Assembly (NCBI RefSeq): GCF_003334355.1
Contig: NZ_QOWP01000037.1
Source: Escherichia coli
GTDB taxonomy: Bacteria > Pseudomonadota > Gammaproteobacteria > Enterobacterales > Enterobacteriaceae
DNA: 31,776 nt
Strand: one strand, 5' to 3'
Below are positions 1-29,597 of this stretch, one piece after another (within the stretch, counting starts at the first letter, position 1; each line of letters starts with the position of its first letter). The translations under genes were made by a program, and so were the position numbers. The notes under the pieces were generated by a model that had not been told where the DNA came from, made no database searches, and saw only the letters and a program-made list of their open reading frames with translations.

Positions 1-221
1 TGCACCTACCCGTTTTATTACATAACTGAAGAAAGCATTGCATTCCGGGAGCGTCCATATATGTTACCTCGCGCCCGTACCCGATAGCCGAAAGGAATAA
101 GATGAGGGAACCGCGCCAGCGGCGATTTACCGCCGGGAGCCCGGGTTGCCAGGGTGGTGGCGATTGAGCCACCCTGGCACGTTCACCGGCTTGAGCGTTC
201 CATAGTAGCGAGGAACATCAA

Positions 222-443
222 GTGAACGGAACAGCCTTCGATCTTACATATTCAGAATATAATAGTGCCGCCGCTCGCGATGCTGATGGGATCTATCGCG
301 TCATGTATGTCGCAAAATTTGAAGAAGCGGTTTACGTATTGCATTGTTTTCAAAAGAAAACACAGACTACCAGTCAATCGAATATTGATTTAGCCAAACG
401 ACGCTATAAAGAACTTGTTCAGGAGCGGAAAAATGAAAATTGA
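222..443 (+). pseudogene. N-terminally truncated RelE/ParE-superfamily (HigB-like) toxin remnant
   Basis: 73-aa ORF with a GTG start at 222. The C-terminal part (GIYRVMYVAKFEEAVYVLHCFQKKTQTTSQSNIDLAKRRYKEL) resembles the conserved core of RelE/HigB-type toxins. An in-frame TGA at 192-194 prevents any longer N-terminus, so about 30-40 residues expected for this family are missing. Overlaps the downstream antitoxin start by 11 nt. Confidence 0.4.
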
Positions 444-723
444 AACCTTTGATAGTGTGTGGGATGCGGTGAGTGACACCCCTGAACAAGCGGAAAATAT
501 GCGGATCCGTGCCGAGCTTGTAACGATCATTAATAACTGGATTGAACAACAAGGGTTTAGCCAGGCTCAGGCAGCTTCTGCTTTAGGGGTCACTCAACCT
601 CGCATATCTGAACTTGCCAGAGGTAAGATCCAGATCTTTAGTATCGATAAATTGATCACCATGATGGCTCATGCAGGATTGCATATTCAACGTATTGAAA
701 TTCAATATCCACATGCTGCTTAG
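433..723 (+). CDS. XRE-family helix-turn-helix antitoxin (HigA-like)
   Basis: Track ORF 415..723; the likely start is the ATG at 433 (MKIETF...). The motif QAQAASALGVTQPRISELARGK is a typical XRE HTH. Toxin-upstream, antitoxin-downstream order with start/stop overlap is the HigBA-type arrangement. Confidence 0.6.
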   Translation: MKIETFDSVWDAVSDTPEQAENMRIRAELVTIINNWIEQQGFSQAQAASALGVTQPRISELARGKIQIFSIDKLITMMAHAGLHIQRIEIQYPHAA

Positions 724-775
724 TGCTATAAATACAGATGGCGACAAATTGACGCCGCCATCTGCATAACTTGTC

Positions 776-2629
776 CTACATCTTCTCCAGCAACTTCTTC
801 ACATCTTTGCCATTGCGGGAATCTTTATTCCGCTCGGCCCAGTCATTCAGGCGACGTTTCGCTTCGTCCTGTAGATGTTTGCGCAGCAGCTGGTCCACTT
901 GCAGGCTGTAATTGAGTTGCTGCCAGTTGCCATAAACCCGCAGCGGTACTGGCGTTTCTTTGAGGAAATCAATCAGTTTGCTTTCTCCGTTCCAGCCACC
1001 CACGACCCGAATATCAAACTGAGTGTCGCAGGTTTGCTCCGCCAGATTCAACGTACCAGCCCCGGAAAGCGCCAGCATGGGCGATTGACCTTGCATGTCG
1101 TTTAACGTCACGACGCCATCCTTCAACATCAAATCGGTGGTAAAGCGGTCAAGACGCGTCACGTTATCAAAGTTTTCAGCGGCCTTCACATCACCACCAT
1201 TACGCTCTACCGCTTGCTGAATCATCTGCTGGAAGTTCATCCCTTCCATGCGTGTATCCGTCATTTCGACATGTGCCTGTCCTTGCCAGTTGTGGCGGAA
1301 TGCGTCGGCATCTATGTCAGCACCGGAGAAATCACCAGCCAGTGACATCTTTCCAGTCAACGAAATCGGATAGTTAAACGCCTTCAGAATGGTGCCAATC
1401 TCAACGTTTTCCAGCCGTGGCTGGAAGTTTATCCGCGGATTTATTGATGTCGCGTCCAGCATGCCCGGCAGTGAAACCTGTCCACCGTTAAGTTTGCCCT
1501 GCAGTTGAGTAATTTCCAGCAGACCCGACTTGTTGGTCATTTGCGTGGCAACATCTGTAAAATTCATTCCGCGCCAGCGCACGTTACTGGCCTGCAACAA
1601 AATATCAGCCGTAAAGCCTTGCAGTCCCTGATAGGCCGGTTCATCAATACGCGAAGAAATGACCGGGCGCGGCAACGTTGATTGGCTCTGCCCCTGCTGC
1701 GCGGCACCGTTTTCACCGTTCGCTGTTTCATTAAGCGGGATGAGGTTGTCAAGATTCAGTTGCGGAAATTGCAGTCTCAGCTGCCATTCCGGTTGCTCTG
1801 TCAGCGTGACCTGTGCTTGCCCGCTCAGCGTACTGTCATTGGCGGTCAAACTAATTTGGTTAAATGAAAGGCGTTTATGTGACTCCTGCCACTGGGCCTG
1901 GAAACTCCCCTGCCCCTGAATACCTTGTTTTGGTAAATCTGCACCCTGCAACTGCCAGTTAACTTGTTCAATAGCCGCCGTTAAATCATGCGGATAATCA
2001 GAAGCATCTACCGTACCGTTAAGGGATATCGTGAGATCGCGCTGATCGCGATTAACCCGCCCGGAGAACTCAAATGAACCACGATGTTGGGGATCTTGTT
2101 CCATTTGCAGGCGAATATTGCGGATTGTCACCTGCTCGTCATCTTCATGCTGGAACACCAGCACGCTGTCCGCCACCTTAAGACTGGATATATCAAACGA
2201 CCATCCGCGATCGTCTGACAGATCCGGCAAGGTATTGTCGCGTGGTGCAACCGGGGCATCTTCACTGCGTACTGCTTCCGTCTGCGGCGTCAGTTGGATC
2301 ACTGCCCCTTTTAGCATCACCTGCTTAACGCTCAGTTGATGACTCAGCAGTGGTAAAAGCGCCACGTCCAGACGCATGTTGTCTGCGCGAACCAGTGGCT
2401 GGCTCGCGCCCTGGGCAGTGAGAGACATTCGCCCGGAGAGGATACTAAGCTGCGGCCAGACGTGCCAACGCAGTGGCCCGTCGAGCTGCAATTGATAACC
2501 GCTACGTGCAGCAACTTGCTTGACCATATAGTCGCGGAAATCATTCGGATTCACCAGCAACACTAACGCAGATAACCCGGCCACCAGCACGACCAGGAGT
2601 ATCATCAGCGTCGTCAGAAATCGTCTCAT
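776..2629 (-). CDS. asmA: AsmA, outer-membrane assembly / AsmA-family protein
   Basis: 617-aa ORF with an N-terminal signal-anchor (MRRFLTTLMILLVVLVAGLSALVLL); length and sequence match my recollection of E. coli AsmA; sits upstream of dcd-udk in the conserved order. Confidence 0.9.
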   Translation of the reverse strand: MRRFLTTLMILLVVLVAGLSALVLLVNPNDFRDYMVKQVAARSGYQLQLDGPLRWHVWPQLSILSGRMSLTAQGASQPLVRADNMRLDVALLPLLSHQLSVKQVMLKGAVIQLTPQTEAVRSEDAPVAPRDNTLPDLSDDRGWSFDISSLKVADSVLVFQHEDDEQVTIRNIRLQMEQDPQHRGSFEFSGRVNRDQRDLTISLNGTVDASDYPHDLTAAIEQVNWQLQGADLPKQGIQGQGSFQAQWQESHKRLSFNQISLTANDSTLSGQAQVTLTEQPEWQLRLQFPQLNLDNLIPLNETANGENGAAQQGQSQSTLPRPVISSRIDEPAYQGLQGFTADILLQASNVRWRGMNFTDVATQMTNKSGLLEITQLQGKLNGGQVSLPGMLDATSINPRINFQPRLENVEIGTILKAFNYPISLTGKMSLAGDFSGADIDADAFRHNWQGQAHVEMTDTRMEGMNFQQMIQQAVERNGGDVKAAENFDNVTRLDRFTTDLMLKDGVVTLNDMQGQSPMLALSGAGTLNLAEQTCDTQFDIRVVGGWNGESKLIDFLKETPVPLRVYGNWQQLNYSLQVDQLLRKHLQDEAKRRLNDWAERNKDSRNGKDVKKLLEKM

Positions 2630-2650
2630 GGTATCCTCAATGGGCCTGAA

Positions 2651-3232
2651 TTAGTCTTTATCGATTCGGCTGGCTACCGCGCCCTGCTGGTTGCGATATT
2701 TCGCATCTTCACGGCGGTTGTAAGGTCGCGCCGCCGGGCCGGAAAGCGGCTCAAAGCTCAGCGCACCAATTAACATGCCCGGACGCAGCGCCAGCGGCAG
2801 CTTACCGGAGTTGTAGAACTCCAGCACAATACAGCCAGACCAGCCCGGATCGATACGGTGCGCGGTGACGTGCACCATCAGCCCCAGACGCGCCAGTGAG
2901 GAACGACCGTCCAGCCATCCCACCAGATCGGCTGGCAGCGTCACCGACTCCAGCGTCACCGCCAGCGCCAGCTCTCCTGGGTGAAGATAAAATGCCTCGC
3001 TTTCATCGAGTACGATCTCATCGCTCATCACGCGGTCAAGCGCGGCGCTCACTTCATCTTTGGGACCGCTCAGATCGATAAACGCTGCCGTGTGACCACG
3101 GAAGGTACGAAATTTATTGCCCAGGCGTACATCCACCGTCGCGCCGTTAATACGCTCCACTGGCGGACGTGGGTTGATCGACAAACGGCCTTCATCAAGC
3201 CAGGCTTCAATATCTCGGTCACACAGACGCAT
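2651..3232 (-). CDS. dcd: dCTP deaminase
   Basis: 193-aa ORF ([19 protein letters not shown]...), matching the length and N-terminus of E. coli Dcd; 21 nt upstream of asmA on the same strand. Confidence 0.9.
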
Positions 3233-3323
3233 GGCATTTTCTCCTTTCGCGCATCACTCCCTTAACGCCAATTACGTCAAGGGCATACCAGGTTATCACT
3301 GAACGGTACACAATTTATCAAGC

Positions 3324-3965
3324 TTATTCAAAGAACTGACTTATTTTCGCTTTCAATATATCGATCGCAATGCGGTTTTTCCCGCCGCGCGGCACGATAA
3401 TGTCCGCATATTGTTTAGAAGGCTCAATGAATTGCAGGAACATCGGACGCACGGTTTTTTGATATTGCGCCATCACTGAATCCATTGAACGCCCACGCTC
3501 GTTAACGTCACGCTTGATGCGGCGCATCAGGCAGATATCCAGCGGGGTATCAACGAAAATTGAGAAGTTAAGTTCGTCACGCAAACGCGCATCCGTCAGC
3601 AGCAAAATGCCTTCGAGAATGATGACCTTCTTCGGCTCAACCGTCACCGTTTCTTTCATACGCGTATGTTCAACATAGCTGTAAACCGGCAGGTCAATTG
3701 CCGAGCCGCGTTTCAACGCTTGTAAATGCTCAAGCAGCAGGCTGTGATCCATCGCGCTGGGATGGTCGTAGTTGGTCTTAACGCGTTCTTCCATCGACAG
3801 ATGGCTTTGATCTTTGTAATAGCAGTCTTCGGGAATTACGCCGATGTGTTCATCACCGACTTGCTCACGTAATTCACGATAAAGGGTACTGGCAATAAGA
3901 CTCTTGCCGGAAGCCGATGCGCCAGCGATACCGATAATGACGCACTGATGAGACTGATCAGTCAT
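3324..3965 (-). CDS. udk: uridine/cytidine kinase
   Basis: Track ORF 3324..4028 is over-extended. The start at 3965 gives 213 aa ([22 protein letters not shown]...) with a P-loop GxxxxGKS. Confidence 0.9.
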
Positions 3966-4282
3966 ATATTTAGCGACCTGATTAACCTGGATGTTAGGAA
4001 GGGGGCGACGAAGCGCCAAACGCGGCAATTATAGGGATTTCATCCGCCTGATACCAGTCGAATAGCGTTGCCGCGCGCTCAGAGTTAATTGTTGACGAAG
4101 AATTCCCGGTGGCAAATTACGTTGATCAGTTTTATACAAGGTAAAAAATGTTATACGCAGTTGCGCAAATCATCCGCCTTTACGTCACTTTATGAGCAAT
4201 TCGCATATAAAATGTAAAACTTTTGTACTAGCATAAACACAGAAACGAATACTGGCGACCAGGTCTTGCGGATAAAGCGGTA

Positions 4283-7200
4283 ATGAGCAAACAATCACAG
4301 CATGTATTAATTGCCCTGCCCCACCCGCTGCTTCACCTGGTCAGTTTAGGTTTAGTCTCGTTTATCTTTACCCTTTTCTCGCTTGAGCTTTCGCAGTTTG
4401 GCACCCAACTCGCCCCACTGTGGTTCCCGACGTCCATCATGATGGTGGCGTTTTATCGCCATGCCGGGCGCATGTGGCCGGGAATTGCGCTGAGCTGTTC
4501 GCTGGGAAATATCGCCGCATCCATCCTGCTTTTTTCCACCAGCTCGCTGAACATGACCTGGACGACCATCAATATTGTTGAAGCCGTGGTCGGGGCAGTG
4601 CTGCTACGTAAATTGCTGCCGTGGTATAACCCCTTGCAAAATCTGGCTGACTGGCTGCGTCTGGCACTCGGCAGCGCCATTGTTCCACCTCTGTTGGGGG
4701 GTGTTCTGGTTGTCCTGCTGACACCCGGAGACGATCCTCTCAGGGCATTTTTGATATGGGTACTGTCAGAATCCATCGGCGCTCTGGCACTGGTGCCGCT
4801 GGGATTGTTATTTAAACCGCACTATCTGCTGCGCCATCGCAACCCACGGTTGCTTTTTGAGTCGCTGCTCACGTTAGCCATCACACTGACGTTAAGCTGG
4901 CTTTCGATGCTGTATCTGCCGTGGCCTTTTACTTTCATTATTGTGCTGTTGATGTGGAGCGCCGTGCGCCTGCCACGAATGGAAGCCTTTTTGATCTTCC
5001 TTACCACGGTGATGATGGTGTCGCTGATGATGGCCGCGGATCCCTCCCTGCTTGCTACGCCGCGTACGTACCTGATGAGCCATATGCCGTGGCTACCGTT
5101 TTTGCTGATCCTGCTGCCCGCCAACATCATGACGATGGTGATGTATGCCTTTCGTGCGGAACGCAAACACATTTCCGAAAGCGAAACCCGTTTTCGAAAC
5201 GCGATGGAATATTCCGCCATCGGCATGGCATTAGTGGGCACCGAGGGACAATGGCTGCAATCCAACAAAGCACTCTGCCAGTTTCTCGGTTACAGTCAGG
5301 AAGAGCTGCGTGGACTCACCTTTCAGCAACTGACCTGGCCGGAGGATCTCAATAAAGATCTCCAACAGGTTGAAAAGCTGATAAGCGGTGAAATAAACAC
5401 CTATTCAATGGAAAAACGTTACTACAACCGCAATGGCGATGTTGTCTGGGCGTTGCTTGCCGTCTCTCTGGTGCGCCACACGGATGGCACGCCGCTCTAT
5501 TTTATCGCTCAGATTGAAGACATTAACGAGCTAAAACGCACCGAACAGGTCAATCAGCAACTGATGGAGCGCATCACTCTGGCTAACGAAGCGGGCGGGA
5601 TTGGCATCTGGGAGTGGGAGTTGAAGCCGAATATTTTTAGCTGGGATAAGCGGATGTTCGAGCTGTATGAAATTCCTCCGCATATCAAACCGAACTGGCA
5701 GGTGTGGTACGAGTGCGTGCTGCCGGAAGATCGCCAGCATGCCGAAAAAGTGATTCGTGATTCGTTGCAATCACGCTCGCCCTTTAAGCTGGAATTTCGC
5801 ATTGCTGTGAAAGATGGCATCCGCCATATCCGCGCCCTCGCCAACCGGGTACTGAATAAAGAAGGCGAAGTCGAACGCCTGCTCGGCATTAATATGGATA
5901 TGACTGAGGTTAAACAGCTTAACGAGGCATTGTTTCAGGAAAAAGAGCGCCTGCACATTACGCTTGATTCCATCGGTGAAGCCGTGGTCTGTATTGATAT
6001 GGCGATGAAAATTACCTTTATGAATCCGGTGGCGGAGAAGATGAGCGGCTGGACGCAGGAAGAAGCGTTAGGTGTTCCGCTCCTGACGGTGTTGCATATT
6101 ACTTTTGGCGACAACGGACCATTAATGGAGAACATTTACAGTGCCGACACCTCACGTTCCGCGATCGAGCAAGATGTGGTGTTGCACTGTCGGAGCGGCG
6201 GCAGTTACGACGTGCATTACAGTATTACGCCGTTAAGTACTCTGGACGGCAGCAATATTGGTTCGGTTCTGGTGATTCAGGACGTTACCGAATCACGCAA
6301 AATGCTGCGCCAGCTGAGCTACAGCGCCTCCCATGATGCACTGACGCATCTCGCCAACCGCGCCAGTTTTGAGAAACAACTGCGTATCCTGCTGCAAACG
6401 GTAAACAGTACACATCAGCGACATGCCCTGGTGTTTATCGATCTTGATCGCTTTAAAGCGGTGAATGACAGCGCCGGGCATGCGGCGGGTGACGCTTTGC
6501 TGCGCGAACTGGCGTCGTTAATGCTGAGTATGCTGCGTTCCAGCGACGTGCTGGCGCGACTCGGTGGGGATGAATTTGGTCTGCTGCTACCAGACTGTAA
6601 TGTTGAAAGCGCGCGTTTTATCGCTACACGCATTATCAGTGCCGTGAATGACTATCACTTTATATGGGAAGGCCGTGTGCATCGGGTAGGTGCCAGTGCC
6701 GGGATTACCTTGATTGATGACAACAATCATCAGGCGGCAGAAGTGATGTTGCAGGCTGATATCGCCTGTTATGCCTCCAAAAATGGTGGCCGGGGCCGGG
6801 TGACGGTTTACGAACCGCAGCAAGCTGCCGCACATAGCGAACGGGCGGCGATGTCGCTTGATGAACAGTGGCGGATGATTAAAGAGAATCAGTTGATGAT
6901 GCTCGCCCACGGTGTCGCTTCGCCACGGATCCCGGAAGCGCGTAATTTGTGGCTGATTTCACTTAAGCTCTGGAGTTGCGAAGGCGAGATTATTGATGAA
7001 CAAACATTTCGTCGTAGCTTCAGCGATCCGGCGCTTAGCCATGCTCTTGACCGCCGGGTATTCCACGAATTTTTCCAGCAGGCCGCAAAAGCGGTTGCCA
7101 GTAAAGGCATAAGCATCTCCCTCCCCCTTTCCGTTGCCGGTTTGAGTAGCGCCACGCTGGTGAATGATCTGCTTGAGCAGCTGGAAAATAGCCCTCTACC

Positions 7201-7600
7201 ACCACGGTTATTACATCTGATTATTCCGGCTGAAGCGATTTTAGATCACGCAGAAAGCGTGCAAAAACTGCGGCTGGCGGGATGTCGGATAGTGCTCAGC
7301 CAGGTGGGCCGCGATCTGCAAATCTTCAACTCGCTGAAAGCGAATATGGCAGATTACCTGCTACTTGATGGTGAGTTATGCGCCAACGTGCAGGGTAATT
7401 TGATGGATGAGATGCTGATTACGATTATTCAGGGGCACGCTCAGCGACTCGGGATGAAAACCATCGCCGGGCCAGTCGTTTTACCCTTAGTGATGGATAC
7501 GCTTTCTGGCATCGGCGTCGATCTGATTTATGGTGAGGTGATTGCCGATGCCCAACCGCTGGATTTGCTGGTGAATAGTAGTTATTTCGCGATTAACTGA
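4283..7600 (+). CDS. dgcE: diguanylate cyclase DgcE (MASE1-PAS-PAS-PAS-GGDEF-degenerate EAL)
   Basis: 1105-aa ORF with a hydrophobic N-terminal membrane domain, PAS-like repeats and an intact GGDEF motif (RLGGDEFGLLLPD). The C-terminal EAL-like region lacks the canonical EAL, DDFGTG and EGVE signatures. Confidence 0.9.
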   Translation: MSKQSQHVLIALPHPLLHLVSLGLVSFIFTLFSLELSQFGTQLAPLWFPTSIMMVAFYRHAGRMWPGIALSCSLGNIAASILLFSTSSLNMTWTTINIVEAVVGAVLLRKLLPWYNPLQNLADWLRLALGSAIVPPLLGGVLVVLLTPGDDPLRAFLIWVLSESIGALALVPLGLLFKPHYLLRHRNPRLLFESLLTLAITLTLSWLSMLYLPWPFTFIIVLLMWSAVRLPRMEAFLIFLTTVMMVSLMMAADPSLLATPRTYLMSHMPWLPFLLILLPANIMTMVMYAFRAERKHISESETRFRNAMEYSAIGMALVGTEGQWLQSNKALCQFLGYSQEELRGLTFQQLTWPEDLNKDLQQVEKLISGEINTYSMEKRYYNRNGDVVWALLAVSLVRHTDGTPLYFIAQIEDINELKRTEQVNQQLMERITLANEAGGIGIWEWELKPNIFSWDKRMFELYEIPPHIKPNWQVWYECVLPEDRQHAEKVIRDSLQSRSPFKLEFRIAVKDGIRHIRALANRVLNKEGEVERLLGINMDMTEVKQLNEALFQEKERLHITLDSIGEAVVCIDMAMKITFMNPVAEKMSGWTQEEALGVPLLTVLHITFGDNGPLMENIYSADTSRSAIEQDVVLHCRSGGSYDVHYSITPLSTLDGSNIGSVLVIQDVTESRKMLRQLSYSASHDALTHLANRASFEKQLRILLQTVNSTHQRHALVFIDLDRFKAVNDSAGHAAGDALLRELASLMLSMLRSSDVLARLGGDEFGLLLPDCNVESARFIATRIISAVNDYHFIWEGRVHRVGASAGITLIDDNNHQAAEVMLQADIACYASKNGGRGRVTVYEPQQAAAHSERAAMSLDEQWRMIKENQLMMLAHGVASPRIPEARNLWLISLKLWSCEGEIIDEQTFRRSFSDPALSHALDRRVFHEFFQQAAKAVASKGISISLPLSVAGLSSATLVNDLLEQLENSPLPPRLLHLIIPAEAILDHAESVQKLRLAGCRIVLSQVGRDLQIFNSLKANMADYLLLDGELCANVQGNLMDEMLITIIQGHAQRLGMKTIAGPVVLPLVMDTLSGIGVDLIYGEVIADAQPLDLLVNSSYFAIN

Positions 7601-7616
7601 GGCGTGCTTCCCCATC

Positions 7617-7653
7617 GCCTGATGCGACGCTAACGCGTCTTATCATGCCTACA
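7617..7653. repeat. REP (repetitive extragenic palindromic) element
   Basis: gcctgatgcgacgctaacgcgtcttatcatgcctaca matches the enterobacterial REP consensus family (GCCTGATGCGACGCT...CGTCTTATCAGGCCTAC). Confidence 0.75.
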
Positions 7654-7668
7654 AATCGCTCATTCCCC

Positions 7669-7701
7669 AGGCCGGATAAGGCGCTCGCACCGCATCCGGC
7701 G
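7669..7701. repeat. REP element, inverted partner (BIME-like pair with 7617..7653)
   Basis: aggccggataaggcgctcgcaccgcatccggcg is a REP in opposite orientation; lies between the dgcE stop and the alkA stop. Confidence 0.7.
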
Positions 7702-7708
7702 ACCAACG

Positions 7709-8557
7709 TCATGCTTCGTCTGGTTGCCAGCCTTCCGTATACCAGATATGCAACAGCGCATAAGAACGCCAGGGCTTCCAGCGCTCGGCATAACGGCGGA
7801 TTTGCGCCGGTGTCATTCCCGGAAATCGCTGTTTAATCAGATAATCATCCGGCAGGAAAACATCTTTCGCCTGCCAGCCACGCAAAGCAAAATAATTCGC
7901 CGTCCAGCGCCCGATACCCGGAAAAGTTTGCAGCGTTTTCATCGCCTGCTCCACATCGCCCGGTATTGTCATTGGTAAGGTGCCCTCCAGCGCCGCATTT
8001 GCCAGATGAATCAGCGCCTCTGCCCGTTTCAACGGCATACCTAACGCTTTTAATGCCTGCGGGTCTGCTGCTGCCAGCCGCTGAGGCGTCGGGAAGCAGA
8101 TATACTCCGGAAAATCATCCAGCCGTTCGCCATAAAGCTGTGCCACTCTGGCGGTCAATTTTGCCGCCATCGCCACGCTCACCAGTTGGCCTAAAATCGC
8201 CCGCACGCCCTGCTCAAAAGCATCAACACAGCCGGGTAAACGCAATCCGGGCCGCGCCGCGCCTAACCTGCCCAACGCACCGTTAACAATTTGTGGGTTA
8301 CATTGCAGATCAAACAGGCGGCTCATTTTCGCCAGACACTCTGCGGCAACAGGTTCTAAACCTGCACTTAAATTTATGTGCAGAGTATGGCGGGCTATAT
8401 CCGGAATAGCAGTCACCACGCCGCGATATTCGCCCACCGCCAGACTACGGGCATAATAACTGTCCGCGACCGTTTCCACACTGCTCACCGCACGGGCGGC
8501 GAGAAATCCCAACATCCACGACCAGTCATACGGCGGCTGCCAGTTCAGGGTATACAT
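7709..8557 (-). CDS. alkA: DNA-3-methyladenine glycosylase II
   Basis: 282-aa ORF (MYTLNWQPPYDWSWMLGFLAARAVSSVETV...) with a C-terminal HhH-GPD region (GIGRWTANYFALRG...D). Confidence 0.9.
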   Translation of the reverse strand: MYTLNWQPPYDWSWMLGFLAARAVSSVETVADSYYARSLAVGEYRGVVTAIPDIARHTLHINLSAGLEPVAAECLAKMSRLFDLQCNPQIVNGALGRLGAARPGLRLPGCVDAFEQGVRAILGQLVSVAMAAKLTARVAQLYGERLDDFPEYICFPTPQRLAAADPQALKALGMPLKRAEALIHLANAALEGTLPMTIPGDVEQAMKTLQTFPGIGRWTANYFALRGWQAKDVFLPDDYLIKQRFPGMTPAQIRRYAERWKPWRSYALLHIWYTEGWQPDEA

Positions 8558-26129: not shown

Positions 26130-26275
26130 TTACGATGCCGGGCGTGGGTTGTTGGCGTCCGGCGCTTTACCAGATCCCCCCACAGCGCTACAATGCCCGC
26201 CCTTAAAGTGGGGGCACTCCCCTAACCGCTTCATCAGGTGAAGCGGATCTGACCTGTCATCAGAACGAGAGAATT

Positions 26276-27637
26276 ATGTTTAAACCGGAACTCCTTTCCC
26301 CGGCGGGAACGCTGAAAAATATGCGTTACGCTTTCGCTTATGGCGCAGATGCTGTTTATGCGGGCCAGCCACGTTACTCCCTGCGTGTGCGCAACAACGA
26401 ATTCAACCACGAAAATCTTCAGCTCGGCATCAATGAAGCCCACGCGCTGGGGAAAAAGTTTTATGTCGTGGTCAACATTGCACCGCACAACGCCAAGCTG
26501 AAAACCTTTATTCGTGACCTGAAACCGGTGGTGGAAATGGGGCCGGATGCGCTGATTATGTCCGATCCAGGGCTGATTATGCTGGTGCGTGAGCACTTCC
26601 CTGAAATGCCGATCCACCTCTCGGTGCAGGCTAACGCCGTAAACTGGGCGACGGTGAAATTCTGGCAGCAAATGGGCCTGACCCGCGTGATCCTCTCTCG
26701 CGAGCTGTCGCTGGAAGAGATTGAAGAGATCCGCAATCAGGTGCCGGATATGGAGATCGAGATCTTCGTTCACGGCGCACTGTGCATGGCCTACTCCGGT
26801 CGCTGCCTGCTCTCTGGCTATATCAACAAGCGCGATCCGAACCAGGGTACCTGCACCAACGCCTGCCGCTGGGAGTACAACGTCCAGGAAGGGAAAGAAG
26901 ATGACGTTGGCAACATCGTACACAAGTACGAGCCGATTCCGGTGCAAAATGTTGAGCCGACGCTGGGTATCGGCGCACCAACCGACAAAGTGTTTATGAT
27001 CGAAGAAGCCCAGCGTCCGGGCGAGTATATGACCGCGTTTGAAGATGAGCACGGCACTTACATCATGAACTCGAAAGATCTGCGCGCCATCGCCCATGTA
27101 GAACGCCTGACCAAAATGGGCGTGCATTCGCTGAAAATCGAAGGCCGTACCAAATCTTTCTACTATTGCGCACGCACCGCACAGGTTTACCGCAAAGCTA
27201 TCGATGATGCCGCTGCGGGCAAACCGTTCGATACCAGCCTGCTGGAAACTCTGGAAGGTCTGGCGCATCGTGGCTATACCGAAGGTTTCCTGCGTCGTCA
27301 TACTCACGACGATTATCAGAACTACGAATACGGTTATTCAGTTTCTGACCGCCAGCAGTTTGTTGGTGAGTTTACCGGTGAGCGCAAGGGGGACCTCGCA
27401 GCGGTAGCGGTGAAAAATAAATTCTCCGTTGGCGACAGCCTTGAGCTGATGACGCCGCAAGGCAACATTTACTTTACCCTTGAGCACATGGAAAACGCCA
27501 AAGGTGAAGCGATGCCGGTCGCACCAGGCGATGGTTATACTGTGTGGCTCCCGGTCCCGCAGGATCTTGAGCTAAATTACGCTCTCCTGATGCGTAATTT
27601 CTCTGGGGAAACCACGCGTAACCCCCACGGTAAGTGA
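26276..27637 (+). CDS. trhP: peptidase U32-family protein YegQ (TrhP, tRNA 5-hydroxyuridine synthesis)
   Basis: 453-aa ORF (MFKPELLSPAGTLKNMRYAFAYGADAVYAGQP...) matching the U32 family as I recall it. Confidence 0.85.
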   Translation: MFKPELLSPAGTLKNMRYAFAYGADAVYAGQPRYSLRVRNNEFNHENLQLGINEAHALGKKFYVVVNIAPHNAKLKTFIRDLKPVVEMGPDALIMSDPGLIMLVREHFPEMPIHLSVQANAVNWATVKFWQQMGLTRVILSRELSLEEIEEIRNQVPDMEIEIFVHGALCMAYSGRCLLSGYINKRDPNQGTCTNACRWEYNVQEGKEDDVGNIVHKYEPIPVQNVEPTLGIGAPTDKVFMIEEAQRPGEYMTAFEDEHGTYIMNSKDLRAIAHVERLTKMGVHSLKIEGRTKSFYYCARTAQVYRKAIDDAAAGKPFDTSLLETLEGLAHRGYTEGFLRRHTHDDYQNYEYGYSVSDRQQFVGEFTGERKGDLAAVAVKNKFSVGDSLELMTPQGNIYFTLEHMENAKGEAMPVAPGDGYTVWLPVPQDLELNYALLMRNFSGETTRNPHGK

Positions 27638-27714: not shown

Positions 27715-27721
27715 CCGTTTC

Positions 27722-27808
27722 GCTGAAAAACATAACCCATAAAATGCTAGCTGTACCAGGAACCACCTCCTTAGCCTGTGTAATCTCCCTTACACGGGCT
27801 TATTTTTT
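27722..27808 (+). ncRNA. cyaR: CyaR (RyeE) Hfq-dependent sRNA
   Basis: gctgaaaaacataacccataaaatgctagctgtaccaggaaccacctcctta...cttacacgggcttatttttt matches the CyaR sequence as I recall it, including the terminal hairpin plus U-tract. Confidence 0.85.
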
Positions 27809-27966: not shown

Positions 27967-28284
27967 TCACTCTCCACATTTGAATGTCAGACGAGCGACG
28001 CCATGTAATCCTGCACCTTCTGTCTTCAGGTCAACTATCTGCATTTTTTTGCCCTGAGTAACACAGAAATGGGCTGCATCATTTTTTACTATATTTTCTG
28101 CACCAGATATTCTGCCCCTGGCTAAAGAAGCTTCGGCTTCGGTGTAGTATTGGTTATCGAGTTTACGCTGAATATTACTTTTATATGCAAGACCAAATTT
28201 ACCGATACTTGTCTCATCATTATGCACAGCACAACCAGACATAATAAAAATACTAATTAATGATATAGCAGCTATCTTTTTCAT
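27967..28284 (-). CDS. yegR: small lipoprotein YegR
   Basis: Track ORF over-extended to 28389; the start at 28284 gives 105 aa (MKKIAAISLISIFIMSGCAVHND...) with a lipobox (MSGC). The gene and its flanks are markedly AT-rich. Confidence 0.75.
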   Translation of the reverse strand: MKKIAAISLISIFIMSGCAVHNDETSIGKFGLAYKSNIQRKLDNQYYTEAEASLARGRISGAENIVKNDAAHFCVTQGKKMQIVDLKTEGAGLHGVARLTFKCGE

Positions 28285-28697
28285 CTCACCTTTCCCCATT
28301 AAATACCAACGACACTCTCTAGTGTTTAAATATAATAATGGCTGATTATTATATTTGAATAGGATTATAATAAATGTTCTGTACAACATTTCCTACATAA
28401 GTAGGAATTACAGACATGAAGGCCCTTTCCAGGTAACTCCATGGAGCTTTAATATATTTGGAATAGTATATTGAAGATGCCACTGTTTGGTTGAATATTA
28501 GGCATATGCTCTTTTTTGAAATTTATCGGTGGCTACCGTTAATATTCGCTGTTCCCATTGCAAGCTCCTGGTGGTAACCACTGAATCCTCCATACTTGAA
28601 CTGACTTTTTATCCTCCGACTTTCATCCTGTTCTGACTCCACCTTTTCTTTTCTGCTCTACACTATCTACAGACCAATCATAAAGGCACATACGATC

Positions 28698-29597
28698 ATG
28701 GCAGAATTTCCCGCCAGCTTACTGATTCTTAATGGCAAAAGTACTGACAATCTACCCTTGCGCGAAGCAATTATGCTGTTGCGTGAGGAAGGAATGACGA
28801 TCCATGTGCGGGTCACCTGGGAGAAAGGCGATGCCGCACGATATGTAGAGGAGGCCCGGAAGTTGGGCGTCGCAACGGTGATTGCCGGTGGTGGAGATGG
28901 CACCATTAATGAAGTTTCTACGGCGTTGATTCAGTGTGAGGGGGATGACATACCCGCGCTGGGAATTTTGCCATTAGGAACTGCCAATGATTTTGCCACC
29001 AGTGTAGGGATTCCTGAGGCACTGGATAAGGCGCTGAAACTGGCAATTGCCGGTAACGCCATTGCGATAGATATGGCGCAGGTCAACAAACAAACCTGTT
29101 TTATTAATATGGCGACAGGCGGATTTGGGACGCGTATTACCACAGAAACGCCGGAAAAATTAAAAGCCGCGCTGGGTGGCGTCTCTTACATCATTCATGG
29201 CTTAATGCGCATGGATACTCTGCAACCAGACCGTTGTGAAATCCGCGGTGAAAACTTTCACTGGCAAGGTGACGCCCTGGTCATTGGTATTGGTAACGGG
29301 CGTCAGGCCGGTGGCGGTCAGCAATTGTGTCCGAACGCGTTAATTAACGATGGCTTGCTGCAACTGCGCATTTTTACCGGCGATGAAATTCTTCCAGCTC
29401 TCGTATCAACCTTAAAATCTGACGAAGATAACCCGAATATTATCGAAGGCGCTTCGTCGTGGTTTGATATACAAGCCCCACACGAAATCACTTTTAATCT
29501 TGATGGCGAACCGTTGAGTGGGCAAAACTTCCATATTGAAATACTTCCGGCGGCGTTGCGTTGTCGATTACCACCAGATTGTCCATTATTGCGTTAA
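28698..29597 (+). CDS. yegS: lipid kinase YegS (DAG-kinase-like fold)
   Basis: 299-aa ORF with the GGDG motif ([13 protein letters not shown]). Confidence 0.9.

Follow-up and report, generated by a model that had tools for sequence, protein, structure and literature searches.

DgcE of Escherichia coli is very probably a membrane-anchored 'master' cyclase of the CsgD curli/cellulose switch that carries a fully dead EAL-fold brake domain. When 105 EAL domains were aligned, DgcE kept 0 of 11 catalytic or ligand positions, against 9 to 11 in about 90 of the 104 diverse homologues; judged from this alignment, the pattern is not a product of chance. A 2019 publication (PMC6510439) already described the architecture, an EAL domain degenerate throughout, and the way in which that domain inhibits DgcE by opposing oligomerisation. 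To these we add a residue-by-residue table of the losses (0/11, and 0/13 on an extended set), a clade-wide degeneracy in which Gly-Pro invariably takes the general-base position, and an estimate of selection that is relaxed yet still purifying (pN/pS 0.23 versus about 0.02).

The dgcE locus and the domain order of its product

The coding sequence of dgcE (yegE) occupies positions 4283..7600 on the plus strand of the window, the whole stretch of 31,776 nucleotides that was analysed, and specifies 1105 amino acids and a stop codon from an ATG start. It was identified from the list of open reading frames, from its 100% nucleotide identity to the gene annotated 'dgcE: diguanylate cyclase' in E. 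coli strain E5, and from the NCBIfam equivalog NF007298, which covers residues 1-1105 at 2066.6 bits (cut-off 1135) and places the protein in the DgcE orthologous group. The gene order udk-dgcE-alkA matches the E5 and K-12 annotations; past about position 8390 the window and E5 sequences diverge. DgcE of K-12 (YegE, b2067; PMC6510439) is encoded by the same gene, with 1105 residues, the same udk-dgcE-alkA context, a MASE1-PAS3-GGDEF-degenerate EAL architecture and both an A-site and an I-site. Only allelic differences separate the two: 33 nucleotides and four amino acid changes (H303R, T327S, T508A and S823L), none of the latter in the C-terminal domain. Of 5426 complete E. coli genomes, 5417 carry the gene. 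A promoter and terminator scan of positions 3900-7800 returned sites no more numerous than in shuffled sequence.

Pfam matches follow one another along DgcE in the order MASE1, three PAS, GGDEF and a partial EAL match, in agreement with an earlier note that had described a MASE1-type membrane domain and three PAS-like repeats. The MASE1 domain (residues 19-294, 4337..5164, plus strand; PF05231, E=8.6e-36, model positions 2-298 of 299) spans the whole hydrophobic N-terminal region of about 300 residues, with several hydrophobic stretches lying within residues 7-293. It has been described as ten transmembrane segments on which the GTPase RdcA acts and from which proteolysis starts (PMC6510439). 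Between MASE1 and GGDEF, three separate PAS profile matches were found on the plus strand, at residues 303-419 (5189..5539; PAS, PAS_9, PAS_3 and PAS_4, E from 1.7e-10 to 3.4e-6), 452-537 (5636..5893; PAS_3, E=1.4e-9) and 555-672 (5945..6298; PAS_4, E=2.1e-10, and PAS, E=1.1e-7), and TIGR00229 also hits three stretches. Among clade relatives of about 1000 amino acids, the second PAS domain is the unit most often missing (5 of 6), and the remaining relative is without the first. The PAS region is required for dimerisation and signal transmission (PMC6510439). The multi-signal input that the earlier note had read into this layout holds in part: RdcA/RdcB input does enter at MASE1, but no ligand is known for the PAS domains (PMC6510439).

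The GGDEF diguanylate cyclase domain (residues 682-838, 6326..6796, plus strand; PF00990, E=1.3e-44, model positions 1-160 of 161) is intact, as had been noted before. A regular-expression search of the translation located the A-site GGDEF motif at residues 761-765 (6563..6577, plus strand), and an I-site of RxxD type, RSSD, was read from the sequence at residues 752-755 (6536..6547, plus strand), exactly five residues upstream with the spacer VLARL. Table 1 of PMC11327459 lists the identical RSSD/VLARL/GGDEF combination. The domain also contains the conserved blocks DALTHLANR, IDLDRFKAVND and GHAAGD. Mutation of the motif to GGAAF abolishes the output of DgcE (PMC6510439), and about 75% of cellular c-di-GMP is lost when dgcE is knocked out in a pdeH mutant (PMC5635695).

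Fold and catalytic residues of the C-terminal domain

The degenerate EAL-fold domain extends over residues ~859-1098 (6857..7576, plus strand). Its Pfam match (PF00563, E=8.8e-21) covers residues 898-1088 (nucleotides 6974-7546; model positions 39-234 of 236), and the part of the model that bears the EAL motif falls outside it. An AlphaFold2 model of the domain reached a pLDDT of 91.8 and a pTM of 0.88, and the top 50 Foldseek matches in the PDB were all EAL domains (E from 1.3e-15 to about 7e-12; TM 0.70-0.82). On the strength of the Pfam match, the model confidence and these fold matches, the EAL fold is clearly recognisable in the predicted structure, with the signature and catalytic residues gone.

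A regular-expression search of the whole DgcE protein found no DDFG, DDFGTG, EGVE, EVL, ELL or EIL, and its only two 'EAL' tripeptides (at residues 548 and 594) lie in the PAS region, outside the EAL domain. These results, and the loss at all 11 aligned positions, bear out the earlier reading that the C-terminal part lacks EAL, DDFGTG and EGVE signatures. With PdeL as reference, E141, R145, N200, E232 and E235 correspond to L891, K895, P948, I980 and A983 in DgcE, and D262, D263, K283, E319, E322 and Q339 to S1006, Q1007, L1027, G1063, V1066 and Y1083. The E-A-L columns are occupied by L891-I892-S893 (6953..6961, plus strand), an assignment common to alignments of 105 and 29 domains and to the phmmer alignment with FimX, and the ExLxR columns read L891-I-S-L-K895, K895 replacing the arginine. 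At the DDFGTG columns the alignments place S1006-Q-V-G-R-D1011 (7298..7315, plus strand); the metal-ligand columns N200, E232 and DD hold P948, I980, S1006 and Q1007. At the AEGVE columns stands A1062-G-P-V-V1066 (7466..7480, plus strand); L1027 and G1063 take the places of the catalytic Lys of KxD and the general-base Glu of EGVE. Every sequence of the degenerate clade (12/12) carries the pair G1063-P1064 at the site of the general-base Glu found in every active enzyme (17/17). Taken together, the alignments support the view of a degenerate domain incapable of phosphodiesterase activity.

The assignments rest on the 105- and 29-domain alignments, which are consistent with the phmmer alignment to FimX. 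A five-sequence MAFFT alignment opened a long gap near the EAL motif and mis-assigned E141 and R145, and was replaced by the larger ones. Four active E. coli EAL domains were added to the 105-domain alignment by hand, their coverage in the local phmmer comparison with the DgcE domain being too low, and PdeH was left out of the EAL-motif columns since its N-terminal part was misaligned (signature 'LE...').

On 13 columns, DgcE kept 0 positions, RflP 3, CsrD 6 and BluF 7, and FimX 6 of the 10 that its fragment covers; by this count the DgcE domain is the most degenerate among the E. coli proteins compared. RflP (YdiV), BluF (YcgF) and CsrD resemble it in having an EAL fold whose catalytic set has gone in part or for the most part, with 3-7 of 13 columns kept; all three are listed as degenerate EAL proteins in PMC5635695. 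These proteins exert their effects by contacting other proteins or RNA. They are stand-alone regulators of other molecules, whereas the DgcE domain works in cis, on the cyclase to which it belongs. The PAS-GGDEF-EAL order of DgcE recurs in PdeR, RbdA and DosP, and the EAL domain of RbdA is its best PDB sequence match. In all three the EAL domain is the catalytic one (13/13 in PdeR and DosP), the reverse of the polarity seen in DgcE. Their GGDEF domain is degenerate in PdeR (PMC5635695) and presumably so in RbdA and DosP.

Conservation of the domain and alternative roles

Eleven DgcE-like representatives kept 0-3 of the 11 key positions, and GGDEF is intact in each of the nine that are full length. 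Two of them (P0006 and P0024) are syntenic with dgcE, adjoining dcd-udk and/or yegD and mdtAB homologues. These alignments and gene neighbourhoods are evidence that the degeneracy is ancestral to the syntenic orthologous group. One relative of like architecture, P0033, has an intact EAL domain. Among orthologues, identity is 26-43% in the degenerate EAL domain versus 52-64% in GGDEF; because the former is the fastest-evolving part of DgcE, some of it may be under little constraint. Across five E. coli alleles, whose pairs are non-independent, pN/pS was 0.234 for the degenerate EAL domain versus 0.014-0.020 for MASE1, PAS and GGDEF (0.014 for GGDEF), and 20 of 27 variable residues fell in residues 846-1105, that is, 74% in 24% of the protein. 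Selection on the degenerate EAL domain is about tenfold weaker yet still purifying.

Such figures might be read as the mark of a functionless relic, drifting neutrally and kept only because truncation would destabilise DgcE: the domain is the least conserved among orthologues, and its pN/pS is more than 10 times that of the others. We consider this reading quite improbable. The ratio is still far under 1, and syntenic orthologues down to 26% identity preserve the full domain length with near-zero indels. The clade also conserves residues foreign to active EAL domains (F889, K941, H1037, M1041, E1043, G1051, G1063-P1064 and F1102), and deletion of the EAL domain gives a gain-of-output phenotype (PMC6510439). 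That same rise in pathway output can be explained without phosphodiesterase chemistry (PMC6510439), which weighs against an EAL domain that still hydrolyses c-di-GMP through shifted or unconventional residues, a reading to which we give almost no credence. K895 is a conservative swap for the ExLxR arginine, E984 lies at +1 of the E235 column and E1085 at +2 of the Q339 column. However, a scan of ±3 positions found no acceptable residue for the five metal ligands (no Glu, Asp or Asn near any of their columns), for the catalytic Lys (no Lys or Arg near the K283 column) or for the general-base Glu (no acid near its clade-invariant Gly-Pro), and the degeneracy proposed in the earlier note stands. 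The alignment is nearly gap-free in this region, making register shifts unlikely, and the fall in c-di-GMP in the dgcE knockout described above is unlike the effect expected of a net phosphodiesterase (PMC5635695).

A role as c-di-GMP receptor, in which the domain would sense either what the neighbouring GGDEF domain makes or the pool in the cell and feed back on activity, was considered from the fold matches to FimX and LapD and rejected on the residue comparison; we hold it to be very improbable. The EAL domains of these two proteins, catalytically dead but c-di-GMP-binding, are the best structural matches, and FimX is among the best PDB sequence matches, sharing 'SQ' at the DD columns with DgcE. 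With the binding residues of receptor EALs defined from the FimX alignment and PMC3032553, FimX retains Q, E, L, R, E and K at Q(P), E-x-L-x-R, E235 and K-x-D, whereas none of the 13 columns is kept in DgcE and the receptor pattern was not found there. The greater degeneracy of DgcE than of FimX, CsrD, BluF and RflP argues against such a role. The residues at its pocket positions (L, P, I, A, S, Q, L, G, V, Y) are for the most part apolar or carry no charge, K895 being the one exception, and the pocket columns vary within the clade instead of being re-fixed. Key c-di-GMP-binding residues are likewise reported absent (PMC6510439), and the intact RxxD I-site already supplies product feedback. 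LapD and FimX are like DgcE in having an EAL fold without hydrolysis, and they offer a plausible structural analogy for its brake; they differ in keeping c-di-GMP-binding residues beside dead GGDEF domains, where DgcE keeps none beside an active one.

A probable brake on DgcE oligomerisation

The brake that we favour agrees with the suggestion in the earlier note that the C-terminal region is a non-catalytic regulatory module, and with published data. Deletion of the EAL domain raises oligomer levels together with output, the isolated degenerate domain dimerises, and the domain has been described as inhibitory, counteracting DgcE oligomerisation, whereas RdcA/RdcB act on DgcE independently of it (Pfiffer et al. 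2019, PMC6510439). The basis for inhibition and anti-oligomerisation in that work is one genetic and two-hybrid study, and the steric model is its authors' hypothesis. According to the published experiments, the RdcA/RdcB pair, when free of GTP, binds MASE1 and promotes the dimerisation of PAS and GGDEF on which cyclase activity depends. In the same account the degenerate EAL domain, which dimerises on its own, is a built-in brake against the active higher oligomer, and it also leaves DgcE more exposed to N-terminal proteolysis. We infer that it may work sterically, through EAL-EAL or EAL-GGDEF contacts and without nucleotide chemistry, in which case it would be like the autoinhibited state of LapD.

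Beyond being a passive steric brake, the domain could bear a lineage-specific docking surface, a proposal that we rate as unlikely. Its partner might be the trigger phosphodiesterase PdeR, bound through its EAL domain as an EAL-EAL heterodimer. Such a surface could comprise the conserved helix N-L-M-D-E-M-x-V-S-I-I-H-G-x-A-Q-R (residues ~1038-1055), the invariant Gly1063-Pro1064 and the C-terminal S-Y-F-A-I-N tail. If true, docking to PdeR would give a physical basis to the 'local' supply of c-di-GMP from DgcE to PdeR, for which an explanation has been lacking. For the brake itself, the biological relevance lies in what it would restrain: DgcE is the top-level trigger of the curli and cellulose matrix in E. 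coli biofilms.

dgcE and its genomic surroundings

The window carries one long open reading frame at 4283-7600 (+) in the ORF listing, with an ATG start and a length of 1105 amino acids. It is 100% identical to its counterpart in strain E5, which is annotated as dgcE and flanked by udk and alkA, and its chromosomal position is that of b2067 in K-12. The NCBIfam equivalog NF007298 matched residues 1-1105 with 2066.6 bits (cut-off 1135), and K-12 dgcE differs by 33 nucleotides and 4 amino acids (H303R, T327S, T508A, S823L), none of which falls in the C-terminal domain. Given this E5 identity, K-12 position, model score and small number of K-12 differences, window 4283-7600 holds the well-known gene dgcE (yegE) in an ordinary allelic form, and the feature is DgcE itself, neither a relative nor a variant.

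Megablast matched dgcE in 5417 of 5426 complete E. coli genomes. The copy in O157:H7 strain F8492 (sequence L010, NZ_CP038282.1 1977399-1980717) has one extra A at dgcE nucleotide 458, within the part that codes for MASE1, and its annotation calls it a frameshifted pseudogene; three further matches among those found measure 3319-3320 nt vs 3318. Pseudogenes of dgcE have been described in EHEC, EPEC and EAEC, as has an S. flexneri dgcE with an IS110-family insertion and a premature stop whose contribution to c-di-GMP persists (PMC11327459).

Window 1-8389 agrees with E5 base for base. SNPs build up from about 8390, inside alkA (7709-8557), followed by indels from about 10044, and the best complete-genome match in the collection for 8000-31776 reached no more than 98.8%. 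The pattern resembles a recombination breakpoint within or close to alkA, so the window would seem to come from a mosaic strain outside the collection. Upstream of asmA (276-723, +), the E5 annotation of the identical stretch calls a truncated RelE/ParE-family toxin remnant (276-443) and then an HTH-protein gene (433-723); an IS110-family transposase lies immediately ahead of the remnant in E5. At 10055-12753 (-), yegI-like and pphC-like frames overlap directly (10055-12004 and 11992-12753), so yegJ, the K-12 spacer between them, is absent from the window, as it is from E5. Three tandem SIB RNA (Sib antitoxin) genes at 13556-13704, 13891-14033 and 14218-14360 (+) (Rfam RF00113, 140-143 bits) imply three Ibs toxin/Sib modules; E5 has three annotated Ibs toxin genes, and K-12 has two modules at this site, sibA/ibsA and sibB/ibsB. 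Between yegP and trhP, E5 has a toxin-antitoxin cassette of ParE and a frameshifted ParD (26329-26924 of its sequence, L007); the window seemingly lacks it, since here the trhP-like frame begins about 150 nt past yegP (26130-26276). This 453-residue trhP/yegQ-like frame (26276-27637) lies directly upstream of a CyaR/RyeE sRNA gene at 27720-27805 (+) (RF00112, 100.7 bits). G+C content drops to 41% at 28001-29000, vs 50-58% elsewhere in the window, around a 140-residue frame at 27967-28389 (-) that by position belongs to the yegR region.

Domain layout and the cyclase domain

Pfam mapped MASE1 to residues 19-294 (E=8.6e-36), three PAS units to 303-419, 452-537 and 555-672, GGDEF to 682-838 (E=1.3e-44) and EAL to 898-1088 (E=8.8e-21). 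The EAL match covered model positions 39-234 of 236 only, leaving the model start that bears the EAL motif unmatched. This map agrees with the layout described in the earlier note, namely a long MASE1 domain, three PAS-like units, GGDEF and about 250 C-terminal residues. The GGDEF domain proved intact, as claimed there: the A-site motif lies at 761-765, exactly five residues (VLARL) after an I-site RxxD (RSSD, 752-755), and further conserved cyclase blocks are present (DALTHLANR, IDLDRFKAVND, GHAAGD). The same RSSD/VLARL/GGDEF order has been tabulated for dgcE (PMC11327459).

Fold and catalytic residues of the C-terminal domain

An AlphaFold2 model of residues 841-1105, built from a 29-sequence alignment in which the EAL region is nearly gap-free, showed alternating strands and helices (mean pLDDT 91.8, pTM 0.88). 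All of the best 50 Foldseek PDB matches were EAL domains (E 1.3e-15 to about 7e-12, TM 0.70-0.82), and the domain thus keeps the EAL fold. With the C-terminal domain as query, an exhaustive HMMER search supplied 150 representatives, of which we aligned the 100 well-covered ones with the DgcE domain and the active K-12 enzymes PdeL, PdeH, PdeR and DosP. Across these 105 sequences, the catalytic and ligand residues of PdeL correspond in DgcE to L891 (for E141), K895 (R145), P948 (N200), I980 (E232), A983 (E235), S1006 (D262), Q1007 (D263), L1027 (K283), G1063 (E319), V1066 (E322) and Y1083 (Q339). DgcE therefore keeps 0/11 positions; about 90 of the 104 other sequences keep 9-11. The strings DDFG, EGVE, EVL, ELL and EIL are absent from the whole protein, and its two 'EAL' tripeptides, at residues 548 and 594 in the PAS region, are chance occurrences. 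The degeneracy proposed from the sequence is borne out by both the empty positions and the missing signatures.

Catalytic residues might be conserved at shifted positions, and this was examined by scanning three residues to either side of each catalytic column. The sole finds were a conservative K895, a Glu one residue past the loop-anchor Glu column (E984) and another two residues past the Gln column (E1085). Shifted conservation is ruled out, because no acceptable residue type occurs near the columns of the five metal ligands, the catalytic Lys or the general-base Glu. A role as c-di-GMP receptor was weighed because the top structural matches, FimX and LapD, are both dead EAL domains that bind c-di-GMP. 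Over 13 columns, PdeL, PdeR, DosP and PdeG keep all 13, BluF 7, CsrD 6 and RflP/YdiV 3; FimX, with residues taken from its alignment to DgcE, keeps 6 of 10 covered columns (Q, E, L, R, E, K). DgcE keeps none, so it lacks even the subset that receptor EAL domains retain, and its one-time active-site positions are now mostly apolar; both points argue against a receptor. The preferred reading remains a non-catalytic regulatory module, which finds support in the lost catalytic set and a published inhibitory role (PMC6510439).

Evolution and regulatory role of the degenerate domain

Degeneracy is common to 11 DgcE-like representatives in the 105-sequence alignment (0-3/11 positions kept). The nine full-length ones have MASE1, 2-3 PAS units, an intact GGDEF domain (RxxD in 8/9) and a full-length degenerate EAL domain. 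Of all their domains this one is conserved least, at 26-43% identity to DgcE vs 52-64% for GGDEF. Two are syntenic orthologues: P0006 comes after dcd-udk and before a yegD-like HSP70 gene, and P0024 has yegD-like and mdtAB-like genes downstream. Lost catalytic columns vary within the clade and are not re-fixed, apart from the general-base column, which is invariably Gly-Pro (12/12), and the Asn column, where Pro prevails (9/12); F889, K941, H1037, M1041, E1043, G1051 and F1102 are conserved in this clade only. A more distant homologue of the same layout, P0033 (1142 residues; MASE1, three PAS, GGDEF, EAL), keeps 11/11 EAL positions, and its GGDEF motif is accompanied by RxxD. It may be bifunctional, or may be close to what the ancestor was like before phosphodiesterase activity disappeared from the DgcE lineage.

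Summed Nei-Gojobori-type counts over five E. coli alleles, in non-independent pairs, gave pN/pS values of 0.017 for MASE1, 0.020 for PAS, 0.014 for GGDEF and 0.234 for the degenerate EAL domain, and residues 846-1105 hold 20 of the 27 variable positions. Among these five alleles, constraint on the degenerate domain is therefore more than tenfold weaker than on the rest of DgcE, yet purifying. Such a pattern fits a structural or regulatory role, neither an enzyme nor a dead relic.

DgcE output needs the GGDEF motif, and MASE1 and the PAS region are the activating parts (PMC6510439). At low GTP, the dynamin-like GTPase RdcA, together with RdcB, binds MASE1 and favours productive dimerisation, and the pair's action does not depend on the degenerate EAL domain (PMC6510439). 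Deletion of that domain, which dimerises in isolation, raises output, protein level and SDS-resistant oligomers, and the authors of that study proposed that the domain perturbs productive oligomerisation (PMC6510439); the steric details of such a brake are inferred. Multi-signal input, also suggested in the earlier note, holds for one known signal (GTP via RdcA/RdcB) and otherwise goes beyond what is established, no PAS ligand having been found. The trigger phosphodiesterase PdeR senses c-di-GMP made by DgcE, and the two proteins make contact in two-hybrid assays (PMC5635695, PMC10211494). One speculative account of this local signalling is that PdeR might dock on the surface of the degenerate domain that is peculiar to the DgcE clade.

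The MASE1-PAS3-GGDEF-degenerate EAL layout, the catalytic loss and the inhibitory regulatory role are all in the literature already; the initial observation is confirmed and its interpretation supported, and the finding is real, ordinary and already explained. The sequence shows DgcE to be a cyclase that is anchored in the membrane and subject to inhibition by its product, and whose EAL-fold tail is non-catalytic.
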